Part shown: one piece after another, positions 14,042 to 26,445 of the stretch
Layout of the letters: each line of letters starts with the position of its first letter
How positions within the stretch are numbered: position 1 is the stretch's first letter
Assembly: GCA_965213625.1 (NCBI GenBank)
Contig: CBDBZU010000004.1
Coordinates: forward strand, 1,280,001 to 1,344,000
Length of the DNA: 64,000 nucleotides
Source: a bacterium
Lineage (GTDB): Bacteria > UBA8248
Direction: 5' to 3'
The notes under the pieces: generated by a model
The model's input: the letters and a program-made list of their open reading frames with translations, nothing else
Told to the model about the DNA's origin: nothing
The model's database searches: none
Translations under genes and position numbers: made by a program

Positions 14042-15058
14042 GTGATCATCGACCCTCATGCCCACATCGCTCCCGAGAGTTTCATCGAAGACGTACGCCA
14101 GGGCCGTTTCGGCGACGCCGTCACCATCGAAGCGGGCGACCCGTGGGAACTGCTCGTCACGAAAAACACCGTTCTCGGCGAGGAGCGGATTCACAAGAAC
14201 CCGTTGCCGAAAGAAACCTATGACGTCGAGATGCGCCTGAGCGACATGGACAACAACCAGAACGTGGACATACAGATACTCTCCGTCGTTCCGCCGATGA
14301 CGCACTACGCGCTCGACGCAGGCCTGAACAGGGAACTCTCCGTATCGCTGAACGATGCGCTGACCGCGCTCACGAAAGAACACCCCGAGCGCTTCCTGTG
14401 CATGGCGCAGATTCCGCTCCAGGACCCCGAAGCCGCGGCGGCCGAACTCGACCGCGCGGTGAAAAACGGCCACCTGGGTTGTCAGATCGGCTCGAACATC
14501 GCGGGGAAAAACCTGGACGACCCCGCACTCGACGTCGTCTGGGCCAAGGCCTGCGAGCACGACGTGCCGATCTTCATCCATCCGGTGGACGTCATGGGCA
14601 TCAATGACAGGCTCAAGGACTATTACCTGAGAAACTTCATCGGCAACCCGCTTGACACGACGATATCCATCGCCTGCCTTATCTTCGGCGGCGTGTTCGA
14701 CCGCTTCCCGAACATCAAGTTCCTGGTCTCGCACGTGGGCGGCTTCGTGCCCTGGATCCGGGGCCGCTGGCAGCACGGCTACGGCGAGCGCAGAGAGCCC
14801 AAGGTGCACGGAGCGAAAGATCCCGAACAGTATTTCGGCAAAATTTACTACGACACCATCATCCACAACGCGGATTCGTTCGAGTTCGCCGTGAAAACGC
14901 TCGGCGTGGACAAGATTCTCTACGGCACGGACTATCCCTTCGACATGGGCTATCTGGCCGGGGCGAAGGAGATTCCCGGGCTTTCGCGCTTCTCGGCGGA
15001 TGAGCAGGAACAGATGCTCTACGGGAACGTGAAGAAACTCTACAAGCTGGACGTGTAG
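14042..15058 (+). CDS. Amidohydrolase_2 family (ACMSD-like decarboxylase/hydratase), paralog 1
   Basis: IDPHAH, PIFIHP, SHVGG, YGTDYPF. Confidence 0.88.
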   Translation: MIIDPHAHIAPESFIEDVRQGRFGDAVTIEAGDPWELLVTKNTVLGEERIHKNPLPKETYDVEMRLSDMDNNQNVDIQILSVVPPMTHYALDAGLNRELSVSLNDALTALTKEHPERFLCMAQIPLQDPEAAAAELDRAVKNGHLGCQIGSNIAGKNLDDPALDVVWAKACEHDVPIFIHPVDVMGINDRLKDYYLRNFIGNPLDTTISIACLIFGGVFDRFPNIKFLVSHVGGFVPWIRGRWQHGYGERREPKVHGAKDPEQYFGKIYYDTIIHNADSFEFAVKTLGVDKILYGTDYPFDMGYLAGAKEIPGLSRFSADEQEQMLYGNVKKLYKLDV

Positions 15059-15142
15059 AACCAGCGACGGAGAATACGACTCGACACACTTGCGGTGAGG
15101 GGTCCCCGGAAGGGCCTCCTCCCTTCATAGATAGAGAAAAAG

Positions 15143-16159
15143 ATGACGGCGATCGATCCACATACCCATATCTATCCCGGGCAGTTCATTGCGGACGTGC
15201 GCGCAGGCCGCTTCGGCCGCACGGCGTCGATTGAGACCGACGAACACGGCGAGTGGCTCATCACGCGCGGAAAGGTCTTGGGGCGCGATTCGGAACTCAG
15301 GAACAAGCTCACGCCCCTTTATTATGAACTCGAGCCGCGCTTCGCCGACATGGAGCGGATGGGCGTCGCGCATCAGGTGCTCTCCATCGGCCCCGCCATG
15401 ACGCTCTACACACTGGAGGCGGAGGCGAACAAGGAGTTGGCCGCCTCGCTGAACGACGGCCTGAGCGCGCTGGCGAGGGAGTACCCCGATAAGTTCTCCT
15501 GCATGGCCACGGCGCCCCTCCAGGACCCGGAAGCGGCGGCGGCGGAACTCGAGCGGGCGGGCGCGAACGGTCACCTCGGCGTGATGATCGCCTCGAACGT
15601 GGCGGGGAGGAATCTCGACGATCCGGGGCTGGACGTATTCTGGGCCAAGGCCCAAGCGCTGGATATGCCCGTGTTCGTGCACCCCACGAACGTGCTGGGC
15701 GGCGGTGATCGTCTCCAGGATTTCTACTTGAGAAACTTCATCGGAAACCCGCTCGATACCACCATAGCGGTGGCGTGCCTCATCTTCGGCGGCGTGATGG
15801 ACAGGTTCCCGGAACTGAAATTCTATCTTTCCCACGTGGGCGGTTTCACGCCCTGGATCAGAGGCCGCTGGCAGCACGGCTACGGCGAGCGCAGGGAACC
15901 CAAGGTGCACGGAGCGAAGGACCCCGAGGAGTATTTCGGTCGTTTCTACTACGACACCATCATCCACAACGCGGATTGCTTCGAATTCGCTGCGAAGACG
16001 CTGGGTGCGGAGCGGATTCTCTACGGCACGGATTATCCGGCGGACATGGGCTATCACCAGCCCGCGCGGGATATTCCGGGTCTGAACCGCCTTTCGGAAG
16101 CGGAGCAGGAGATGATTCTCACGACCAATGCCAGACGTGTCTACGGACTTAATATATAG
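15143..16159 (+). CDS. Amidohydrolase_2 family (ACMSD-like), paralog 2
   Basis: IDPHTH, PVFVHP, SHVGG, YGTDYP; same length (338 aa) as, and similar to, the upstream gene. Confidence 0.88.
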   Translation: MTAIDPHTHIYPGQFIADVRAGRFGRTASIETDEHGEWLITRGKVLGRDSELRNKLTPLYYELEPRFADMERMGVAHQVLSIGPAMTLYTLEAEANKELAASLNDGLSALAREYPDKFSCMATAPLQDPEAAAAELERAGANGHLGVMIASNVAGRNLDDPGLDVFWAKAQALDMPVFVHPTNVLGGGDRLQDFYLRNFIGNPLDTTIAVACLIFGGVMDRFPELKFYLSHVGGFTPWIRGRWQHGYGERREPKVHGAKDPEEYFGRFYYDTIIHNADCFEFAAKTLGAERILYGTDYPADMGYHQPARDIPGLNRLSEAEQEMILTTNARRVYGLNI

Positions 16160-16163
16160 GGAC

Positions 16164-16191
16164 TGGACAAAGCGTCTTTGCGGTGTAAAAT
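16164..16191 (+). promoter_or_regulatory. Candidate sigma70 promoter for the nitrile-hydratase-like pair
   Basis: TGGACA-16 bp-TAAAAT. Confidence 0.4.
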
Positions 16192-16242
16192 TCAGATAAG
16201 TATTTCAGATCAAGTCGATTCAACTGCATAGGGGAAGTTCCG

Positions 16243-16530
16243 ATGGAGGAAACCACCTTCCGCGTGGGCGACAGGGTGCGCATCAAGGAGATGTACCCCG
16301 ACGGCCACCACCGGACGACGTATTTCGTGAAGGGTAAGACGGGCGTCGTCAACCGTTATTTCGGCAAATACAAAAACCCGGAAAACCTCGCCTACGGCGG
16401 CGACGGCCTGCCGCTCAGGGAACTCTACTGGGTGGAGTTCGAAATCAACGATCTCTGGGATCACGAGGCGGGGAAAAAACAGGACAAACTCTATATCGAG
16501 ATTTATGAACATTGGCTGGAGCCGGTCTAG
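16243..16530 (+). CDS. Stand-alone SH3-like domain of nitrile hydratase beta subunit (thiocyanate hydrolase alpha/ScnA-like)
   Basis: FRVGDRVRI, GHHRT..FVKGKTG, PENLAYG, LYWVEF...LW, D.LYIEIYEHWLEP. Confidence 0.85.
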   Translation: MEETTFRVGDRVRIKEMYPDGHHRTTYFVKGKTGVVNRYFGKYKNPENLAYGGDGLPLRELYWVEFEINDLWDHEAGKKQDKLYIEIYEHWLEPV

Positions 16531-16568
16531 GCGAATCCACCGGCTCCCCCGTGAGCGAGGAGCACACC

Positions 16569-17333
16569 ATGGCGCACTCACACGATCACCACAACGGCGG
16601 ACATGTTCACCACCACGGCGACCATCCCCACACGTACAGCCAGGACCCCGGGGCGCACAACGCGCGTATGCAGTCCGACGACGCCTACCGCGAAGGAGCC
16701 GTGACCCAGGTCGAACACGATCTGGACTACTACCAGGTGCGGATGATGGCGCTGATGAACGTCCTCAGAGAGAAGGGCCTTCTCACGACCGACGAGATGA
16801 GGCGCGCGGTGGAGGAGATTTACGGCCAGAGCCCCGCCATCGGTTCGCGCATCATCGCGCGCGCCTGGGTGGATGAGGGCTTCAAGGAAAGGCTCCTCAC
16901 GGACGCGGACGCCGCCTGCGGCGAAATGGGGGTTGACACCACGGGCATCAACCGCGTGGTGGCCCTCGAGAATACCGACACGACCCGCTACATGGTGGTG
17001 TGCACGCTGTGTTCGTGCTACCCGAGGCAAATCCTCGGTCAGCCCCCCACCTGGTACAAGAGTTTCCCCTATCGCTCGAAGGCCGTGTCGGACCCGAGGG
17101 GAACCTTGAAGGACATGGGCTTCGATGCGCCCGATGACGTGGAGCTCATCGTCATCGACTCGAATGCGGATTGCCGCTATCTCATCATCCCCCAGCGTCC
17201 GGCGGGAACCGAGGACTGGAACGAAGCGCAACTCTTCCAGCTCGTGACGCGCGATTCGATGATCGGCGTGGGCGATCCCCTGACGCCGGAGCAACTCGAA
17301 GAAGCGATGCAGGCGTCGGAGCAGGCCACCTGA
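16569..17333 (+). CDS. Cobalt-type nitrile hydratase alpha / thiocyanate hydrolase gamma-like subunit
   Basis: Metal-binding VCTLCSCYP, ARAWVD..FK.RLL, VTRDSMIG; His-rich N-terminus. Confidence 0.9.
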   Translation: MAHSHDHHNGGHVHHHGDHPHTYSQDPGAHNARMQSDDAYREGAVTQVEHDLDYYQVRMMALMNVLREKGLLTTDEMRRAVEEIYGQSPAIGSRIIARAWVDEGFKERLLTDADAACGEMGVDTTGINRVVALENTDTTRYMVVCTLCSCYPRQILGQPPTWYKSFPYRSKAVSDPRGTLKDMGFDAPDDVELIVIDSNADCRYLIIPQRPAGTEDWNEAQLFQLVTRDSMIGVGDPLTPEQLEEAMQASEQAT

Positions 17334-17401: not shown

Positions 17402-18895
17402 ATGCCGACGCCCCGCGTAATAGCGATTCAGTTCGATGGTCTTCGCGCGGACGCCCTGAGTGCGGAGAGAACACCGAATCTCCTCGCCGCGGCGGAGCGA
17501 GGCGCGTGGTTCCAGAATCACCGCAGCACGTTTCCCACCTCGACGAGGGTTTGCGTATCGAGCCTCGCCACCGGCGTCTATCCCCGAATGCACGGCCTGC
17601 CGGGGAATTCACTCTTCTCACCCGAGTTGGGCGAATCCATCACCACGGGCCGCTACGAGCACCTCCTCGCCTGGGAGCGGGCCATGGGCGGGCGTCTGCT
17701 CTTGCAGGACACCTTTTTCGAGCGGGCGGGAGGCGGCGTCATCATCAGCGCCGCGTCGAGCGGCTCGGCCTGGATCTGGAACGCGGGACGGCCTGCGTGC
17801 CTGATTCATCCAGAGGCGACGCATCCCGCTGAAGATATTGGAAGAATCGAGGAGACGGGAAAAATCCCCGCGGCAGGGGAACCGGATCTTGCGCGCTGCG
17901 CGTGGGCGCTCGACGTGACGCTCGATTACGTGATCCCCGAACTCGAACCCGCCGTGCTCGTGGTACATCTGAGTGAGCCGGACAGCACGCAACACTACCG
18001 GGGCGCCGCAGGTGCAGTCCATCGTCAGGCGCTCGAAGGGGTGGATCGACTGTTCGGCGCGTTCTGGGAAAGGTTTCGAGCGGCACACGATGATTGGGCG
18101 CAGACGAACCTTCTCCTGTTCTCCGACCACGGCGTCGTTGCGACGGCGGGCATGATCGACCTGGAAGCGGAACTCAATGATATCCCGGGTCGCGGGGAGA
18201 GGTGGGAGGTGGCGCACAGCGAGGGCGCGGCGCTTTTCTATGCGCAGTCGGAAAAAACACTTTTGGAGCTTTTAGAGCTTTTGCGGACGAAAGACTGGGC
18301 GGGGCCGCTCTTTTCAAAAGACGGGGATGGCGCCGAGGGAAGTTTGCCGGGAACGATGTCCTTGAGCCTGGCGGGTTGCGGCGGACCACGCGCGCCCGAT
18401 TTGCTCATGGGCTTTCAGTGGGGCGATGGATTCTTGCAGGGCGCACAAAGCGCGGGCGCGCTCCCCGGCTGGGGGTATTCATCGGTCAACAACAAGGGAA
18501 GCGGGGGAACGCACGGCTCGTGCAGCCCGTATGAGTTAGGCAATTTCCTGATTGCGCAAGGCCCCGCTTTTCCGGCGGGTGTGCGGGTGGATGCGCCGAC
18601 GGGAAACATCGACCTGGCCCCCACCATACTTTCCTTAGCTGGGCAGGAGACGCCCGGCGGTCTCGATGGGGAGACGCTTACGAACGCTTCCAGAGCGAGA
18701 GGAGAAAAGCGGGTCTACCGGGTGGAGTCCAAAGATTTCGCGCAGACGCTCTCGCGCACGGAGGTGAACGGGCGGTTTTATCTCAATTACGCAAGGTTGG
18801 AGAAAGGGCAATTTTTCTTCGATGGTGGGCTAGGGCACACCGTGCGCTCGCCTAACGCTCGGCGTCCGTATACGCGGCGCGTTCCTCGTCCTTGA
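17402..18895 (+). CDS. Alkaline phosphatase superfamily, nucleotide pyrophosphatase/phosphodiesterase-like
   Basis: FDGLR, FPTSTRV, TG.YP..HG, EPDSTQH, SDHG, GTHG, NIDLAPTIL. Confidence 0.83.
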   Translation: MPTPRVIAIQFDGLRADALSAERTPNLLAAAERGAWFQNHRSTFPTSTRVCVSSLATGVYPRMHGLPGNSLFSPELGESITTGRYEHLLAWERAMGGRLLLQDTFFERAGGGVIISAASSGSAWIWNAGRPACLIHPEATHPAEDIGRIEETGKIPAAGEPDLARCAWALDVTLDYVIPELEPAVLVVHLSEPDSTQHYRGAAGAVHRQALEGVDRLFGAFWERFRAAHDDWAQTNLLLFSDHGVVATAGMIDLEAELNDIPGRGERWEVAHSEGAALFYAQSEKTLLELLELLRTKDWAGPLFSKDGDGAEGSLPGTMSLSLAGCGGPRAPDLLMGFQWGDGFLQGAQSAGALPGWGYSSVNNKGSGGTHGSCSPYELGNFLIAQGPAFPAGVRVDAPTGNIDLAPTILSLAGQETPGGLDGETLTNASRARGEKRVYRVESKDFAQTLSRTEVNGRFYLNYARLEKGQFFFDGGLGHTVRSPNARRPYTRRVPRP

Positions 18896-19763
18896 AGTCA
18901 TCCAGCAGATTGTGACCGCCCTCTTTGGCCTGCCGGACGGTGAAGATGGGCGGCGGCACGTCCGGACGCCATTTGGTGGTTTCCGGCGGTTCGGGCCACT
19001 CATACGGCAGGTGCCGATAGGCGTTGGGCGCTTGCGCTTCTTCCAGCAGCGCCGCCATGTCCTCGCAAATTTTGCGCTGTCCCTCGTAATCGCCCGCGAC
19101 GCCCAGTTGCCGCCCGAAGGGGTACTGGACGAACACCGCCCTGGGTACGCAGACTCGCTCGGTGGTCTCGGGCACGTTGGAGATGATGACGGTGGCGATC
19201 CCCGCCTTTTCGATTTCGCGCTGAAGCAGTCCGCCGGACCGGTTGCACAAGGGTCAGACCGGATAGAGGAAGGCCGCATCCACGCCCTCCGCTTTCATCT
19301 TCTCGATCATCAGGGGCGCGGTGCGCTTCACCAGCGGGTTGAAGTTCGGGATGTAGCCCATGATGGAATAGAGCGTATCGGCCAGCGCGCCGATTCTTCC
19401 CTCCTGCTCGAAATCCGTGAAGATATCGACCGGCCAGGACACGTTTCTGTCCTCGGCCATGAAGGAGGTATCGACGTGTAAGTGCGAATACGCCACGTCG
19501 TCCTGGCCCGCCGTCTTGGGAATCTCCCGGTGGGTGGGGTCGCCCCACGTGCCCTCGCGGCGCTCTCTTTCATAATCGAAAGAAACGTCGTTCTTCATGA
19601 AGATGCCGGCCGTAGATACCAGGGTGACCTTGCACTCTGCCAGTGGTTTTTCCAGCGGCGTCCAGGGCGTTTTGGCCGGGTCCGCGTGGCGCTGCGCCAG
19701 GACGCGATCGCGCGAGGTGGGGTGAAAATAAAATCCATCGACTTTTTCGATCGGCATGTTCAT
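18852..19763 (-). CDS. Glycine/sarcosine/betaine/D-proline reductase selenoprotein B-like (PrdB/GrdB family); in-frame UGA at 19254-19256 read as Sec
   Basis: ORFs 19254-19763 and 18852-19250 are one frame: ...AFLYPV-TGA-PLCNRSGGLLQREIEKAGIATV (UxxC). Both halves are PrdB-like (TPWTP..KPL.EC.V.LVSTAG; VPRAVFV.YPFG). Confidence 0.85.
19227..19241 (-). promoter_or_regulatory. Candidate bacterial SECIS hairpin
   Basis: CGGTCC-GGC-GGACTG starts 12 nt after the UGA; G-initiated loop. Confidence 0.55.
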
Positions 19764-19786
19764 CCTCGAATTCCGGGTTTCATGAT

Positions 19787-21055
19787 TCAGGCTGGAGACG
19801 CTCCTCTCTTATCTCTTTTCGTCCAGCCGAGCAACACGACAAAGAAGCCGCAGAGAAAAAACATGAGCGCGAAGGCCGAAAGTCCCCAAAGGTAGGAGCC
19901 GTGCAGGTCGAAGAGGAAGCCCGTGGTCCATGGCCCTGCCGAACCCCAGAGGGCGAAGCCCATCATCGCTACGCCGTTCACGCGCCCGAAGCCGGGGCCT
20001 TCGAAATAATCCGCCAGGATGGCTGAGCCGGTAGGCCGCATGAGCCCCAGGGCTAGACCATTGGCGATCGTGCCCAGGTAGAAGCGGATTTGGGGGTCGC
20101 CCTTCTCGTAGTTCGCCAGAACGAGGACGGAGGCGATCCCGAGCGCCACGCCGATGAGGAACGTCGGCACCCGGCCCAGGCGGTCCGAGACCGGGCTGAT
20201 AAGGTTCGCTCCCACCTGGCATAAGCCCCAGATGGCGAACAGAACGCTCGCGGTTTCGAGCGAGAAGCCCTGGTCGGTGGCGTGAGGCACCAGATGAACA
20301 AGCATGCCCGCGAAGGTGTACGCCATGGGCAGAAACGAACCCATGAAGAAGAAAAACGGCAGATTTAATAAGGAGACGCGCTTATCATCGGATGATGAAG
20401 GCGCTGGTTTCGGTGTTTGCTCCTCCGGCAGTTCCAGGATGAAAGGGGCGTCGGCGATGGTGCCTTTGTCGGATGGGTGGTCCCTGTGAAAAATGATGCA
20501 GACGGGGAGCACGATGAGCAGAGTCACTCCCGCAAGCGCCAAATAGCTCATTCGCCAGCCCAGGGCCGAGATGAGGTAGGGCGTCGCGATGTTCAGGCAG
20601 AAGGCCCCCCCCTGGCAGGTGTTGGAAATGCCCAGGGCGAGTCCTCTTTTTTTCACGAACCAGTTCGAGAGCGTGGGCACCTGGGCAATCCAAGTGCTCG
20701 CGGCGAAGCCTGCGCACAGGCCGATGTACATCAGATAAAAATGCCAGAGCGAGGAGATTTGGCTTCCGATGAGAAGCGAGAGGCCGAATACCACGACCCC
20801 CGCCGACATCGACGCCCGTATGCTCCAGCGATCGGAAAAGATGCCCGCCAGCGGCGAGATGATCGCCTGGGCCACCATGCCGATGGAAAAAGCCGCCGCC
20901 GTCGCCCCCCGGCTCCAGCCCAGCTCGCCCGAGATTTCCTTGAAGAAGGGCCCGATGGTGGCGCGAATGGCGATGAGCGAAATCATGACGAGAAAGACCA
21001 CGGCCAGAACCACCCAGCCGTACCAGAGGCGCGATTCGTCCCGCATGACGTTCAT
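19787..21055 (-). CDS. MFS transporter (OFA/MCT-like), paralog 2
   Basis: WYGWVVL, GWSRG, NWFVKKRGLALG, SDRLGR; about 12 hydrophobic segments. Confidence 0.88.
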   Translation of the reverse strand: MNVMRDESRLWYGWVVLAVVFLVMISLIAIRATIGPFFKEISGELGWSRGATAAAFSIGMVAQAIISPLAGIFSDRWSIRASMSAGVVVFGLSLLIGSQISSLWHFYLMYIGLCAGFAASTWIAQVPTLSNWFVKKRGLALGISNTCQGGAFCLNIATPYLISALGWRMSYLALAGVTLLIVLPVCIIFHRDHPSDKGTIADAPFILELPEEQTPKPAPSSSDDKRVSLLNLPFFFFMGSFLPMAYTFAGMLVHLVPHATDQGFSLETASVLFAIWGLCQVGANLISPVSDRLGRVPTFLIGVALGIASVLVLANYEKGDPQIRFYLGTIANGLALGLMRPTGSAILADYFEGPGFGRVNGVAMMGFALWGSAGPWTTGFLFDLHGSYLWGLSAFALMFFLCGFFVVLLGWTKRDKRGASPA

Positions 21056-21059
21056 GGTC

Positions 21060-22328
21060 CTAAGCGCGCTCTTCGCGCGGCATGCCAGAGAGGCTCACGA
21101 CGAAAACCGCGCCAACGATGAACATGCAGCCCACGAGGAGAAAACCCGAGTAGTAGTTCCCGCTGGCGTCGAAGAGCATGCCCGTCACGAGCGGGCCGAG
21201 CGCGCCAATGAGGGAGAAGACCATCATTGCGCATCCGTTTACGAGACCGAACCCCGGCCCCGCGAAATGGTCCGCCAATAGAGAGGACGCCGTGGGCCGG
21301 ACGAAGCCCAGTGCGAAGCCCACTCCCATCGCGCCCGCGTATATCAGCCACTCGGGCGATGCGCGCGTGAAGGCGGCCAGGAGATAACTCGCGGCCACGC
21401 CGCACACCACGCCCACCATGTAGGTGGGGAGCCTCCCGATGCGATCCGAAATCGCGCTCAACCCGTTTCCTACGACGAGGGCCGCCCCATACAGGGCGAA
21501 GAGCGCGGCGCCCCCCGAGGGAGAGAAGCCCTGGTCCGTCGCGTGGGGTATCAGGTGCACCAGAACGGCGGTGAAGACATACGCGATGCTGCCGTAAATG
21601 CCTCCGATCAGCATGAACCTGCGGGTGAAGAAAAAAGTAAAGGATACAGTTTCCGATTCCTTATCCGCAGGAATGATGACGGCGGCCCTGGCGCGGGCGC
21701 GGGAGAACTCCTCAGACGTGAGAAAAGGCGCGTCGGGAGCGGTTCGTTTCTCTCTGGGGTGGTCGCGCAGCGTCGTCACGGCGAAGGGCAGCACGAGTAG
21801 GAGTACGATTCCCGCCAGTGCGAGATAGCTACCCCGCCAGCCGAGTGCCGCGATGAGCAGAGGCGTGAAGATGTTCACGATGGGCGCGAAGCCCTGGGCT
21901 GCGTGCGAGAAACCCATGGCGAGGCCGCGCTTCAAGACGAACCAGTTCGAGAGCAGTTGCACCTGCGGCAGGTTGGCCGTGAAGGCGAAGCCGACCGATA
22001 GCAGAAAATACATGGCGTAGAATTGCCAGAGCGCACCGATGTAGGCGCCGATGATGAGCGCCGCTCCGTTTACGAGGATGCCTGCGCCAATCACCCAGCG
22101 CATGTTGAAGCGCTCGAGCACCCAGCCCGCGAAGGGGGCGACCATCGCCTGGCCGAGCATGCCCATGGTGAAGGCGGCGGCTGTCTCTGCGCGGTTCCAG
22201 CCGAATTCGCCGGAAATGTCCTTGAAGAAAACGCCGATAGAATTTCTGATGCCGATGGTCACCGTCAGGATCATGAAGACACTGAGGAGGATCACCCACC
22301 CGTACCACAGGCGCAGTTCTTTGCTCAT
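21060..22328 (-). CDS. MFS transporter (OFA/MCT-like), paralog 1
   Basis: Start MSKELRLWYGW; NWFVLKRGLAMG, SDRIGR; homologous to the downstream MFS. Confidence 0.87.
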   Translation of the reverse strand: MSKELRLWYGWVILLSVFMILTVTIGIRNSIGVFFKDISGEFGWNRAETAAAFTMGMLGQAMVAPFAGWVLERFNMRWVIGAGILVNGAALIIGAYIGALWQFYAMYFLLSVGFAFTANLPQVQLLSNWFVLKRGLAMGFSHAAQGFAPIVNIFTPLLIAALGWRGSYLALAGIVLLLVLPFAVTTLRDHPREKRTAPDAPFLTSEEFSRARARAAVIIPADKESETVSFTFFFTRRFMLIGGIYGSIAYVFTAVLVHLIPHATDQGFSPSGGAALFALYGAALVVGNGLSAISDRIGRLPTYMVGVVCGVAASYLLAAFTRASPEWLIYAGAMGVGFALGFVRPTASSLLADHFAGPGFGLVNGCAMMVFSLIGALGPLVTGMLFDASGNYYSGFLLVGCMFIVGAVFVVSLSGMPREERA

Positions 22329-22345
22329 CTGGTAACGCGATGCGA

Positions 22346-22684
22346 TCAAGACGATGATTGGTCTTTGAGCGGTTGCCCCACCCAAAACGAATAGCCGGAG
22401 TAGAATTTCTCCACCCGTTTGATGGCGTGATCCGAGATGCGGACGCCCTCGACCGCGACGTCCGTAACGCCGGGGTGCTGCATCAGCTTCTGGCGCACGC
22501 CCAGGGCGTAGGTGACGCTCTTGAGCATGCAGCCGCGGCACGCGCCCTCGAAGCGCAGCGATACTTCGCCTTTTTCGCTCACTTTATCGAGCGAGATGCC
22601 GCCGCCGTGAATCTTGAGAAGCGGGCGAATCTGCGTCTCGATGATGTCCTGGACGTCGGTGACGAGGGCTTCGTGCTCGTTCAT
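22346..22684 (-). CDS. NifU-C/Nfu domain protein
   Basis: IRPLLKIHGGGI, FEGACRGC (CxxC). Confidence 0.85.
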   Translation of the reverse strand: MNEHEALVTDVQDIIETQIRPLLKIHGGGISLDKVSEKGEVSLRFEGACRGCMLKSVTYALGVRQKLMQHPGVTDVAVEGVRISDHAIKRVEKFYSGYSFWVGQPLKDQSSS

Positions 22685-23709
22685 CGGGCTGCTCCGCTCC
22701 ATAACTCTTGTTTCTTGGCCTCCACGTCCACGCCGAAGATGCGCGCCTGGTTCAGGCCCAGGATGTTGCGCTTATCCTCTTCGGTGATCTGCGGATAGCC
22801 GTAGTCGTCCTGCATGGATTCCGGGATTTCCATCTCCCATATCCACTCGATAACGGGCTTTGCGTTTCCCAGAAGCGCCATCTCAGAACCCCAGAGCACT
22901 CTCTCGGAGCCCACGTCGCGCAACAATCTGCCCATCCACTCGGTGAAGGTTCTGGGCGCGACCATGGGCGTATGGCCGATGCCTGAGAGCACGAGAAAGA
23001 CGTTCTCGTAGCGGTTCGCCATCCAGACGACTTCCTCGAAGTAGGGCACCGCCAGGTGGTGGATGCCGAAGAGCAGATCGGGAAAATCAAGGGCCGCGCC
23101 CTCGATGTCGAGCGGTGAGAGGTCGCGCAGCTTCGCCCGTGTGATGGGGTTTCCCTTGTGGAACTGGAATACCTCGATGCCCAGTTCGCGCCCTTTTTCA
23201 TAGAGGGGGTAGGCGATTTCGGGGTCGTCGCACGCCCAGGATTTTCCGTCCACGTGGGCGTTGTAGATTTTCATGGATTTCGCCCCCCACTCCTTCACCT
23301 GGCGCTCCATCTCCTCACACGCTGCGGCCACGCTCGGATACATGGGGTCCACGGCCCCACAGAACAGGCAGCGCTCGGGAAACGCTTGAGCGAACGCATA
23401 CTGCGCCTTCACGGGCGCAAAGCCGTCTTTATACAGGTCGAACAAGGGCACGGCCTGGGCCATCGCCATGTCGGTGCCCGAATCCTCGAAAACGAGGCGG
23501 CCCATGTCCTCCACGCTCCAGCGGCGCTTGAAGCCCTCCACCGGGTGCCAGTTCGCGTAGACGTCGGTGGGCGCGGTTCGTCTACGGCGGAGCACCTTGC
23601 TCACGTGGTAGTGGCGGTCGTATTCGCTTTGCTCCGAGACGAGGTTCTCATCCGAGTAGTCGTACATGTGCACCACGTTGTCGAATACGAATACGTCGTC
23701 GCGAATCAT
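22681..23709 (-). CDS. Amidohydrolase_2 family metal-dependent hydrolase
   Basis: DNVVH, FHKG, DFPDL.F.IHH, VLWGSE, DKRNILGLN.AR. Confidence 0.85.
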   Translation of the reverse strand: MIRDDVFVFDNVVHMYDYSDENLVSEQSEYDRHYHVSKVLRRRRTAPTDVYANWHPVEGFKRRWSVEDMGRLVFEDSGTDMAMAQAVPLFDLYKDGFAPVKAQYAFAQAFPERCLFCGAVDPMYPSVAAACEEMERQVKEWGAKSMKIYNAHVDGKSWACDDPEIAYPLYEKGRELGIEVFQFHKGNPITRAKLRDLSPLDIEGAALDFPDLLFGIHHLAVPYFEEVVWMANRYENVFLVLSGIGHTPMVAPRTFTEWMGRLLRDVGSERVLWGSEMALLGNAKPVIEWIWEMEIPESMQDDYGYPQITEEDKRNILGLNQARIFGVDVEAKKQELWSGAAR

Positions 23710-23914
23710 GACGCCAATCTCCTGGTAGGGGATAGAATCACCATCGCCAGATTATACATACAGCGCGCGGTCATGTCAGACGGGAGAGAGATTTCAGGTT
23801 AGCTTTGGTTGGGCTTTTAGGCGCAAGAGTCGTGAAATACCGCCGCTATTGGACTTAGATATAAAGTGCGCGTAGAAAAGTCCCTGGTTTTTCCACGCGC
23901 CAAAGGAGCAGGAC

Positions 23915-24925: not shown

Positions 24926-26445
24926 GGGTCTGTTGAAAAACCCGGTGTTGGAAGCGGGCGTTTTGGCGGCTCACGCGGCGGCGGAGAGGCAGTCCAATCG
25001 GCGCGTGAGGGCGCCATGTGTGCGCAGACGGCGTCTCCAGGCGGCACAGGCCGTCCAGAGGGCGAATAAACGCGCCGCAAAAGCGGCGGCCAGCCGCTTG
25101 AGGTTCACCGCTATCGCCGTCAGGTAGGACTGGATCCTCATGTTCGCAAGGCCCCGGCGCACCGCCCGCCCCAGTCCGTGCCGGCTCTTCGCCTCGCCGT
25201 GGTAGCCCTCCGAGCGCCAACGGTGGCGGTCGTAGAGCCGCTTCTCCTCCTCCCCCCATCGCAAATGGCGACGACGCGCGCGCAACAGCGCCGGATACGC
25301 GTTGGGAATCAACACCGCCTTGCTCGTTTGCGACTTCGACAGACAATCGGACCTGAGCGCGCAGCCCGCGCAATCCCGCGTCTTCGATACATAGGAGCGC
25401 CCCCGCTCCGTCGCCTGCCGGGGACGCAGCGTCTTGCCTCCCGGACACTTCACCACCTCGTTGCGCGCATCGTAGTGGAACAACTGCAGCGGAACACGGC
25501 TCTGGCTGGGTTCCTTCTTCGCTGGTATCAGCGCTTCCACGCCCCGCCGCTCCAATTCGCCATAAACCTTCGAGTACGCGTAGCCCGAATCCGCCGTCAC
25601 CATCTCCGGCGCGCGGCCCGACAACTCGCTTACCGCCTCTATATGGGACGCCATCATCTCACGCTCGTTCCGCGTCCCCTCCGTCACCGACACGTCGAGA
25701 ACAACACCCCGCTCATCGTCCACCGCCGCGTGCTGCTTGTAGCTCGGCTCGAACCCCGCCCGCGCGCTCTTGCGCGCAAGCCGCGCGTCCGGGTCCGTCC
25801 GGCTCACCCGACCCCCGCCACCGCGGCCTCCTCCCTTCTTCTCCCCCTCATCATCGACGGGATTCTCCCGAATCACCTTCTCCGCGTGGTGCGCCGCCAG
25901 ACTCTCCCAGCTCACGTCCGCGCGTATCAACGAGGCGTCCACGTGCACCACTTCCCCCTTCGCCACATTCGCCTCCAGGCAAGCCTGCACCGTGCGACGG
26001 AATATCTCCTTGAACCGAGCCTCCCCCCACCGCTGACGAATCCGCGTCAGGCTCGAATGATGCGGCAAATCCTCGTGCAGCCCGTACCCGATGAACCACC
26101 GGATCGCCAGGTGCGCACGCGCCTCGCGAAGCAGACGCCGGTCGTGTACGTAGCCCAGCAACATACCCGCCAGCATCAGGCGCAACGCCACCTCCGGGTC
26201 GATCCCCGGTCGACCGTTATCCGCGCAATAGCAATCCGCCACCTCCGCGCGAAGCCAACTCAAATCCAGTACGTGGTCCACGCGCATCAGGACGTGATCC
26301 TCGGGGATCAACCGTTCCAGCGAACCGGCCACGAACAAATCCATCTGCTCGCGCCCCTTGCTGCCTATCATCGAGGGAACTCCCATCTCGGGCGAGATAG
26401 TGTCCTTACACCCAATCACAATGCCGGGGGTTTTTCAACAGCCCC
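24926..26445 (-). mobile_element. IS1182-family insertion sequence, apparently intact
   Basis: TIRs GGGTCTGTTGAAAAACCC (24926) and GGGTTTTTCAACAGCCCC (ends 26445); direct repeat TTGTC at 24921-24925 and 26446-26450. Confidence 0.88.
24971..26371 (-). CDS. IS1182-family DDE transposase
   Basis: LIPEDH, GRPGIDP, PHHSSLTRIR, VDAS, TDPDA, ADSGY, CPGG..L, C.GC.LR..C, R.RSEG..GEAK..HGL. Confidence 0.9.
   Translation of the reverse strand: MIGSKGREQMDLFVAGSLERLIPEDHVLMRVDHVLDLSWLRAEVADCYCADNGRPGIDPEVALRLMLAGMLLGYVHDRRLLREARAHLAIRWFIGYGLHEDLPHHSSLTRIRQRWGEARFKEIFRRTVQACLEANVAKGEVVHVDASLIRADVSWESLAAHHAEKVIRENPVDDEGEKKGGGRGGGGRVSRTDPDARLARKSARAGFEPSYKQHAAVDDERGVVLDVSVTEGTRNEREMMASHIEAVSELSGRAPEMVTADSGYAYSKVYGELERRGVEALIPAKKEPSQSRVPLQLFHYDARNEVVKCPGGKTLRPRQATERGRSYVSKTRDCAGCALRSDCLSKSQTSKAVLIPNAYPALLRARRRHLRWGEEEKRLYDRHRWRSEGYHGEAKSRHGLGRAVRRGLANMRIQSYLTAIAVNLKRLAAAFAARLFALWTACAAWRRRLRTHGALTRRLDCLSAAA

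Follow-up and report, generated by a model that had tools for sequence, protein, structure and literature searches.

A PrdB-like selenoprotein in an aerobe is not new: ocean surveys have listed such proteins from 2005 onwards, and the available text of these surveys sets 42 UxxC 'PrdB' sequences beside a single grdA and a single grdB for the Sargasso Sea (PMC1088965) and 235 PrdB-type sequences beside 5 GrdB for Global Ocean Sampling (PMC2398784). A 2026 review, in the portion available, describes only canonical complexes (PMC13188914). Here a selenoprotein of this kind is considered at the end of a five-gene cluster in a bacterium of the UBA8248 lineage, within a stretch of 64,000 nucleotides (the window; GenBank assembly GCA_965213625.1, contig CBDBZU010000004.1, positions 1,280,001 to 1,344,000). 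The cluster encodes an amidohydrolase_2 TIM-barrel protein, a small Nfu/NifU-C-type protein, two transporters of the major facilitator superfamily (MFS) and the selenoprotein (Table 1). On balance it is likely to be a composite operon, put together at the level of one genus from two independent units: the amidohydrolase-Nfu pair, with an MFS transporter, and a stand-alone selenoenzyme.

The amidohydrolase also has described relatives. It shares the amidohydrolase_2 fold with PF04909 enzymes, including the gamma-resorcylate and 5-carboxyvanillate decarboxylases, the hydratase LigJ and BB4693, and with the ARO proteins AibH2, SfbO and PtmU3. It falls in the same clade as the amidohydrolase of propane/acetone monooxygenase (prm) operons, to which it is 28-33% identical over the full length and with which it shares invariant residues; in both settings a small, Cys-bearing gene of the iron-sulfur (Fe-S) carrier type adjoins it. 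The window differs from the prm operons in that the partner is of Nfu type (CxxC) rather than DUF59, the first His of HxH is absent and there is no monooxygenase nearby. Figure legends in two papers label an amidohydrolase and DUF59 pair in propane-monooxygenase operons and give no function for it (PMC9213486; PMC13677872), and our literature search found no paper describing an amidohydrolase-Nfu/DUF59 pair.

An earlier note on this DNA had read the cluster as five same-strand genes with spacings of -4, 17, 4 and 23 nt, and the open reading frames (ORFs), with an ATGA overlap at the -4 junction, and the Pfam matches bear this out. The sigma-70-like site upstream of the amidohydrolase gene is, taken alone, not above chance (1 found in the search, 1.6 expected); the same motif recurs at -66 to -77 in 18/18 genus loci and in 0/22 other loci. 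The tight spacing and the conserved sigma-70-like site make it probable that the five genes form one transcript, a putative operon. Nor is the combination unique to this genome, as the earlier note had allowed it might be. The amidohydrolase was found in 21 of the 22 other genus members, with the selenoprotein within ∼7 kb in 21/21, and the single member without an amidohydrolase match is 79% complete. Of these loci 15 were mapped: the MFS gene is single in G001 and G007, the first MFS gene is truncated in G009, and G008 and G022 carry three convergent genes between the second MFS gene and the selenoprotein gene (L038:7310-9666, L039:9420-11777); this cassette comprises a 181-amino-acid (aa) gene without family assignment, a polysaccharide-deacetylase-like gene and an HpaD-like dioxygenase gene. 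The amidohydrolase, with a ratio of non-synonymous to synonymous substitution (dN/dS) of 0.046, is the most constrained of the five; the value for Nfu is 0.19.

Beyond the genus the cluster comes apart. The amidohydrolase was detected in 5/38 other genomes at E<=1e-30, at loci without the selenoprotein, and the syntenic locus in the sister genus consists of amidohydrolase, Nfu and MFS genes, again without it. Over all 40 amidohydrolase genome loci the selenoprotein occurs in 18, all of one genus, and there is no selenoprotein match in any of the 39 amidohydrolase loci outside the genus (22 genome loci and 17 plasmid loci). The reverse search gave the same picture: 15 selenoprotein-relative loci were fetched from outside the genus, 14 at >=60% identity (from 13 of the 14 such genomes, G033 being left out) and one at 47%, and amidohydrolase, Nfu and MFS genes are absent from all of them. 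Their selenoprotein genes instead neighbour maleylpyruvate-isomerase-family (4), Zn-dehydrogenase (4), metallo-beta-lactamase-fold (2) and molybdoenzyme (2) genes, as well as cyclase, hydantoinase-like and FMN-dehydrogenase genes. In a midpoint-rooted tree of 34 rows, eight amidohydrolase-linked selenoproteins of the genus group in a single clade (100/100) that lies within a wider set of copies from other gene contexts, and the sister copy adjoins a cyclase. Since the linked copies form one clade, the linkage looks like a single event, for which the 21 genomes cannot be counted as independent support.

This distribution bears on the proposal of the earlier note that the five genes constitute a new system for uptake and reductive cleavage or detoxification, in which Nfu could supply Fe-S or redox support. 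As a conserved selenium module the cluster finds no support beyond one genus. Five genes evolved as one module, or an Nfu that serves the selenoprotein, are not supported either: the selenoprotein relatives are found next to six or more other sets of genes, none of them with Nfu, and Nfu accompanies the amidohydrolase across phyla in the absence of the selenoprotein. A narrower form of the proposal would be one young, genus-restricted pathway of MFS import, conversion by the barrel and reductive cleavage by the selenoprotein, with redox or Fe-S support from Nfu. The tight spacing, the one conserved promoter-like site and the linkage in 21/21 genus members with the amidohydrolase fit such a pathway, and there is a precedent, in the text available, in the fluoroacetate reductase (far) operon of Synergistota, which ties GrdB-related proteins to C-F cleavage and resembles the window cluster in joining a GrdB-related protein to a transporter gene and a non-amino-acid substrate (PMC10838667). 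As described there, that operon differs in being anaerobic, in keeping a radical SAM gene as well as two genes related to the GrdB complex, and in having neither amidohydrolase nor Nfu. The one-pathway explanation is unlikely, given a link that arose once and is absent from the sister genus and from all 39 non-linked loci, a cluster that is interrupted in G008 and G022, and two PrdB-like paralogues in the genome without an adjoining Nfu.

The conserved core is instead the amidohydrolase and a small partner of the Fe-S-carrier type, namely Nfu or, in distant relatives, DUF59. An Nfu gene lies <=2.6 kb from the amidohydrolase in 38/40 genome loci, including 15/15 from Alphaproteobacteria and Actinomycetota, and the two loci without it represent a second in-genus amidohydrolase paralogue. 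Of 35 matching plasmid records, 17 were inspected, chosen for annotation and taxonomic spread; a partner adjoins the amidohydrolase in 16, annotated as 'NifU' in 1 and as 'iron-sulfur cluster assembly'/DUF59 in 15 (five of the records are archaeal), and the seventeenth has a shortened amidohydrolase whose neighbour is unlisted. NifU-C and DUF59 share a fold. Genes around the plasmid pairs encode alcohol and aldehyde dehydrogenases, short-chain dehydrogenases/reductases, epoxide and alpha/beta hydrolases, and glyoxalase or DJ-1. One alphaproteobacterial metagenome-assembled genome (MAG) carries an in-frame amidohydrolase-Nfu fusion (L077). Judged by this linkage, the window Nfu would be a dedicated partner of the amidohydrolase. 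Its PF01106 domain with CxxC places it, on sequence, in the Nfu/NifU-C class; H26, C49, C52, T58, R64, R90 and the C-terminal extension are kept in 23/23 rows, and a profile of the subtype matches 582 representatives at E<=1e-10. It was also compared with the two-domain housekeeping NfuA of ∼190 aa, an identity that was rejected on its length and on a TIGR03341 score of 43.5 bits (cut-off 269); a separate 182-aa Nfu-like gene lies elsewhere, at C4:135.7-136.3 kb.

The barrel itself departs from the canonical PF04909 metal site. The predicted structure (mean predicted local distance difference test score, pLDDT, 92.5) adopts the TIM-barrel amidohydrolase fold. The Foldseek matches span template-modelling (TM) scores of 0.56-0.67, the best being 3IRS (BB4693, uncharacterised; 0.67/0.80), and the PF04909 decarboxylases and LigJ are matched at 13-19% identity. 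Strand 1 reads D10-N-V-V-H14, without the first His of HxH, which is missing in all 113 homologues with a readable motif (7/120 were unreadable), and the strand-8 acid is Glu (E276) in 110 homologues. The canonical PF04909 set of H-x-H, His on strands 5 and 6 and Asp on strand 8 is therefore incomplete, H184 and H218 being kept; the protein further carries K147, Y149 and K185. Over the window protein and 10 plasmid relatives D10, D80, K147, Y149, H184, K185, D201, H218 and N236 are invariant, and the strand-1 and strand-8 ligands vary. An ARO identity was considered and rejected, as both ARO motifs, in the definitions given in the available part of PMC13154177 (see also PMC10811679), are absent: D10-N-V-V-H14 stands in place of D-x-H, and W-G-S-E276-M-A-L in place of D-x-P-H-x-D/E.

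From the weakened canonical metal site and the near-obligate Cys-bearing partner we infer that the barrel and its small partner are most likely one enzyme, in which an old and widespread barrel, its metal site non-canonical, works with a dedicated small CxxC protein of Nfu type, replaced by a DUF59/SufT-type protein in more distant relatives. The partner would supply or co-ligate an Fe-S or iron centre. The barrel would act on a small oxygenated compound, a diol, hydroxyketone or aldehyde by oxidation level, and would dehydrate, isomerise or cleave it without hydrolysis. Nfu and DUF59 are Fe-S delivery factors, and the main rival for this two-protein enzyme is a role in maturing or repairing the metal centres of other Fe enzymes, such as the diiron monooxygenases; in 3/17 plasmid loci the pair is indeed part of a soluble diiron monooxygenase operon that also contains GroEL. 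The other 14 list no monooxygenase within their 3-5 kb flanks, there is none in the window cluster, and the plasmid neighbours are mostly alcohol and aldehyde enzymes, so that a maturation role appears quite improbable. A bolder form of the two-protein enzyme is a tentative possibility that we rate well short of likely: that barrel and partner are two subunits of an undescribed class of Fe-S or iron enzyme in bacteria and archaea, which has lost the canonical metal site, relies on cysteines of the partner as metal ligands and acts on small diols, hydroxyketones or aldehydes, the gene pair of the propane/acetone monooxygenase operons being another instance.

Several observations weigh against the composite operon and the chemistry assigned to its parts. 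The five-gene order is kept under purifying selection across a genus in which the selenoproteins diverge to 84% identity, and a functional link acquired within the genus is therefore possible; moreover, this genome and the genus have a further copy of the amidohydrolase with no Nfu gene next to it. The fusion, a single record from one MAG, is weak evidence, two other 'longer' matches look like frameshift artefacts, and the only one of the top 120 amidohydrolase homologues to exceed 400 aa has no Nfu part. Neither family has a close solved structure, and the chemistry is drawn from gene neighbours only.

The second unit of the composite operon is the selenoprotein. A single TGA, at codon 170, splits its PF07355 gene and is read locally as V-U170-P-L-C173. 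Read-through as selenocysteine (Sec) is well supported as a prediction, because 33 homologous stretches selected by tblastn have the TGA in frame, the codon lines up with Sec or Cys in homologues, the median dN/dS is 0.105 both before and after it (15 genus loci), and tRNA-Sec, selA and selB are present in the genome. A hairpin 12 nt after the UGA is a candidate selenocysteine insertion sequence (SECIS) only: 93.9% of cells are paired over 30 sequences, against 21-56% in slid controls, in a test inflated by coding constraint and by kinship of the sequences. Two pairs show two-sided change, and the 82-nt region after the UGA folds no better than shuffles (z-score 0.17).

The earlier note had called this protein selenoprotein B, a name that needs one refinement. 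Its length (303 aa) is that of PrdB rather than of the 430-aa GrdB; it covers only positions ∼220-400 of GrdB-type models and has no grdE or grdA linkage. The PrdB model TIGR04483 is its best match, but below cut-off (133 bits, cut-off 300). Homology extends over positions 18-234 of the 238 in that model, with Sec at the equivalent site and a resolving Cys, and the protein differs from PrdB and GrdB in that PrdA/GrdE, PrdC and GrdA are not linked to the gene, which is kept where PF09338 is not found. By family and motif, rather than by comparison with the survey sequences, the protein appears to belong with the orphan marine PrdB-like UxxC family, which it resembles in PF07355 membership, U-x-x-C, PrdB-like length, an aerobic host (the genome carries a heme-copper oxidase) and the absence of adjoining partner genes, and from which it differs in ending an amidohydrolase-Nfu-MFS unit and in having ∼45 extra C-terminal residues beyond the TIGR04483 match. 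Structure searches with its model (pLDDT 88.8) returned no informative solved relative. Selenium-free relatives of 270-314 aa, some from Acidobacteria (P0188-P0199), form a single-Cys subfamily in which G-C-x-L-S or D-C-L-G replaces U-x-x-C.

The window contains no grd or prd partner, which agrees with the earlier note's statement on PrdA, GrdE and GrdA. The same note held that canonical reductase partners elsewhere in the genome might explain the selenoprotein, and Grd partners do exist: a grdC-grdA-grdE-grdB cluster lies ∼2 Mb from the window (C4:3.273-3.278 Mb; L009:11137-15748), in which both grdA and grdB contain Sec codons; it encodes a B protein of its own (438 aa) and is followed by a PrpD-family gene. 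It accounts for the single genome-wide matches to PF09338 and PF04723; the former is a 427-aa gene of GrdE/G type scoring 26 bits against TIGR04480 (cut-off 700), and the PF09338/TIGR04480 search thus yielded no PrdA pyruvoyl proprotein in the genome. These partners nevertheless fail to explain the orphan, because near-complete relatives without grdE, prdA or grdA keep the selenoprotein: G001, G007, G009, G015 and G019 (94-100% complete, G001 and G007 being single contigs at 99-100%) have the window-type cluster and no PF09338 or PF04723 (GrdA) match. Among 61 genomes the short selenoprotein was matched in 42, PF09338 in 33 and GrdA in 30. The window selenoprotein could in principle serve the Grd-type reductase of this genome as an exchangeable subunit for substrate binding, in favour of which stands the existence of the Grd cluster with its Sec codons; that cluster's own B protein, the five genomes just named and the reverse case of G032 and G036, with Grd genes and no short selenoprotein match, largely refute this by distribution and leave it the least probable of the explanations considered. 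This distribution indicates that the orphan acts without a pyruvoyl partner. In the Grd cluster itself, the B protein motif T-U-G-T-G-T-R has no resolving Cys, and grdD was not found in this genome or in any of the 61 searched (0/61, in a search without a positive control match), against 33/61 for PF09338, a pattern of a GrdD-less Grd complex in this lineage.

The genome has two further PrdB-like genes. The second selenoprotein (66% identical) lies behind a maleylpyruvate-isomerase-family gene (L010:8256-9961), and linkage to a maleylpyruvate-isomerase-family/SCP2 gene is found in five genera of this family (L010, L015, L017, L021, L024, L050-L052), which makes it more widely kept than the five-gene linkage. 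The third (39% identical, A-U-G-L-C) is directly upstream of a cysteine-dioxygenase-like (CDO_I) gene (L011:8876-10505).

The stand-alone PrdB-like selenoenzyme would have been added once, in the ancestor of the genus. Its mechanism is drawn here from general PrdB/GrdB chemistry. There being no pyruvoyl subunit, and so no Schiff-base activation, the Sec170 selenolate probably attacks a small substrate that is already activated, through a good leaving group or oxidised sulfur; Cys173 would resolve the Sec adduct, and re-reduction would fall to the general thiol system rather than to Nfu.

The two transporters are 48% identical to each other, and the genome holds at least 7 further relatives. 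For both, the highest-scoring models are those for L-lactate/monocarboxylate and oxalate-formate transport, though the scores stay below cut-off (MFS1 against the L-lactate MFS model NF049980, 94 bits, cut-off 320). MFS1 is the one absent or truncated in some genus members, and the single MFS of the sister-genus locus matches MFS2 best; we propose that a monocarboxylate-type MFS joined the amidohydrolase-Nfu pair in this family and was later duplicated. In most genus loci, those with a single MFS among them, MFS2 stands directly before the selenoprotein, and its family resembles monocarboxylate carriers. This would suit a sub-unit of MFS2 and selenoprotein that takes up a small carboxylate, for instance a haloacid or an onium acid, and reductively cleaves or detoxifies it, with the amidohydrolase-Nfu pair only sharing the promoter. 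With the sister-genus MFS already adjoining amidohydrolase-Nfu where there is no selenoprotein, and the 15 selenoprotein loci outside the genus lacking any nearby MFS of this family, we regard that arrangement as very unlikely.

Table 1. Positions of the cluster, its candidate signals and neighbouring features in the window.
Feature	Position	Strand	Evidence
Amidohydrolase_2 TIM-barrel protein, 342 aa	22681..23709	-	Pfam PF04909 E=2e-27
Nfu/NifU-C-type protein, 112 aa, C49-x-x-C52 and conserved C-terminal extension	22346..22684	-	PF01106 E=8e-16
MFS transporter 1, monocarboxylate/OFA-like	21060..22328	-	PF07690
MFS transporter 2	19787..21055	-	PF07690
Stand-alone PrdB-like selenoprotein, 303 aa, U170-P-L-C173, UGA at 19254-19256	18852..19763	-	PF07355 E=8e-10
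Sigma-70-like promoter site CTGACA-17-TATAAT, 42 nt upstream of amidohydrolase gene	23751..23779	-	11/12 matches
Candidate SECIS hairpin with a 6-bp stem and, 18 nt past the UGA, a 3-nt loop whose first base is G	19227..19241	-	
Two tandem PF04909 genes and nitrile-hydratase-like pair	14042-17333		
Phosphodiesterase-family ORF, 497 aa	17402-18895		
DDE transposase	24971-26419		DUF772/DDE_Tnp_1_6
Two consecutive complex I-like gene sets	28486-52973		Sequence reading
Two adjacent short ORFs, 83 and 93 aa	60297-60860	-	Weak OsmC match (second ORF)

Around the cluster, the phosphodiesterase-family ORF overlaps the convergent 3′ end of the selenoprotein gene by 44 nt and is longer than the 464-469 aa of 12 relatives, possibly through a lost stop codon or a frameshift. 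Relatives of the transposase adjoin both the second selenoprotein (L010) and the amidohydrolase paralogue (L012). The tandem PF04909 genes and the nitrile-hydratase-like pair, of which beta is the C-terminal part only (95 aa) and alpha has a His-rich N-terminus, are syntenic in the genus and sister genus. The complex I subunits that the earlier note placed in the window form a full nuoA-N run followed by a run without nuoE-G. The two short ORFs, ∼30 nt apart, are possibly another UGA-split gene.

The cluster, then, consists of real genes in a probable operon. This operon was probably put together within the lineage from two uncharacterised units, and the units are of more interest than their combination. 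The strongest form of the bolder reading, in which the genus couples the barrel-partner enzyme to a partner-free selenoenzyme in one aerobic pathway, is doubtful at best. Orphan PrdB-like selenoproteins rank among the commonest selenoproteins in ocean surveys, and genomes without grdE, prdA or grdA provide clean test cases for them. The most promising part of the cluster for experiment is the amidohydrolase-Nfu/DUF59 pair, whose members occur together almost without exception in both bacteria and archaea, the partner being Nfu in some and DUF59 in others; this leads to the concrete prediction that it would be a two-subunit metal enzyme.

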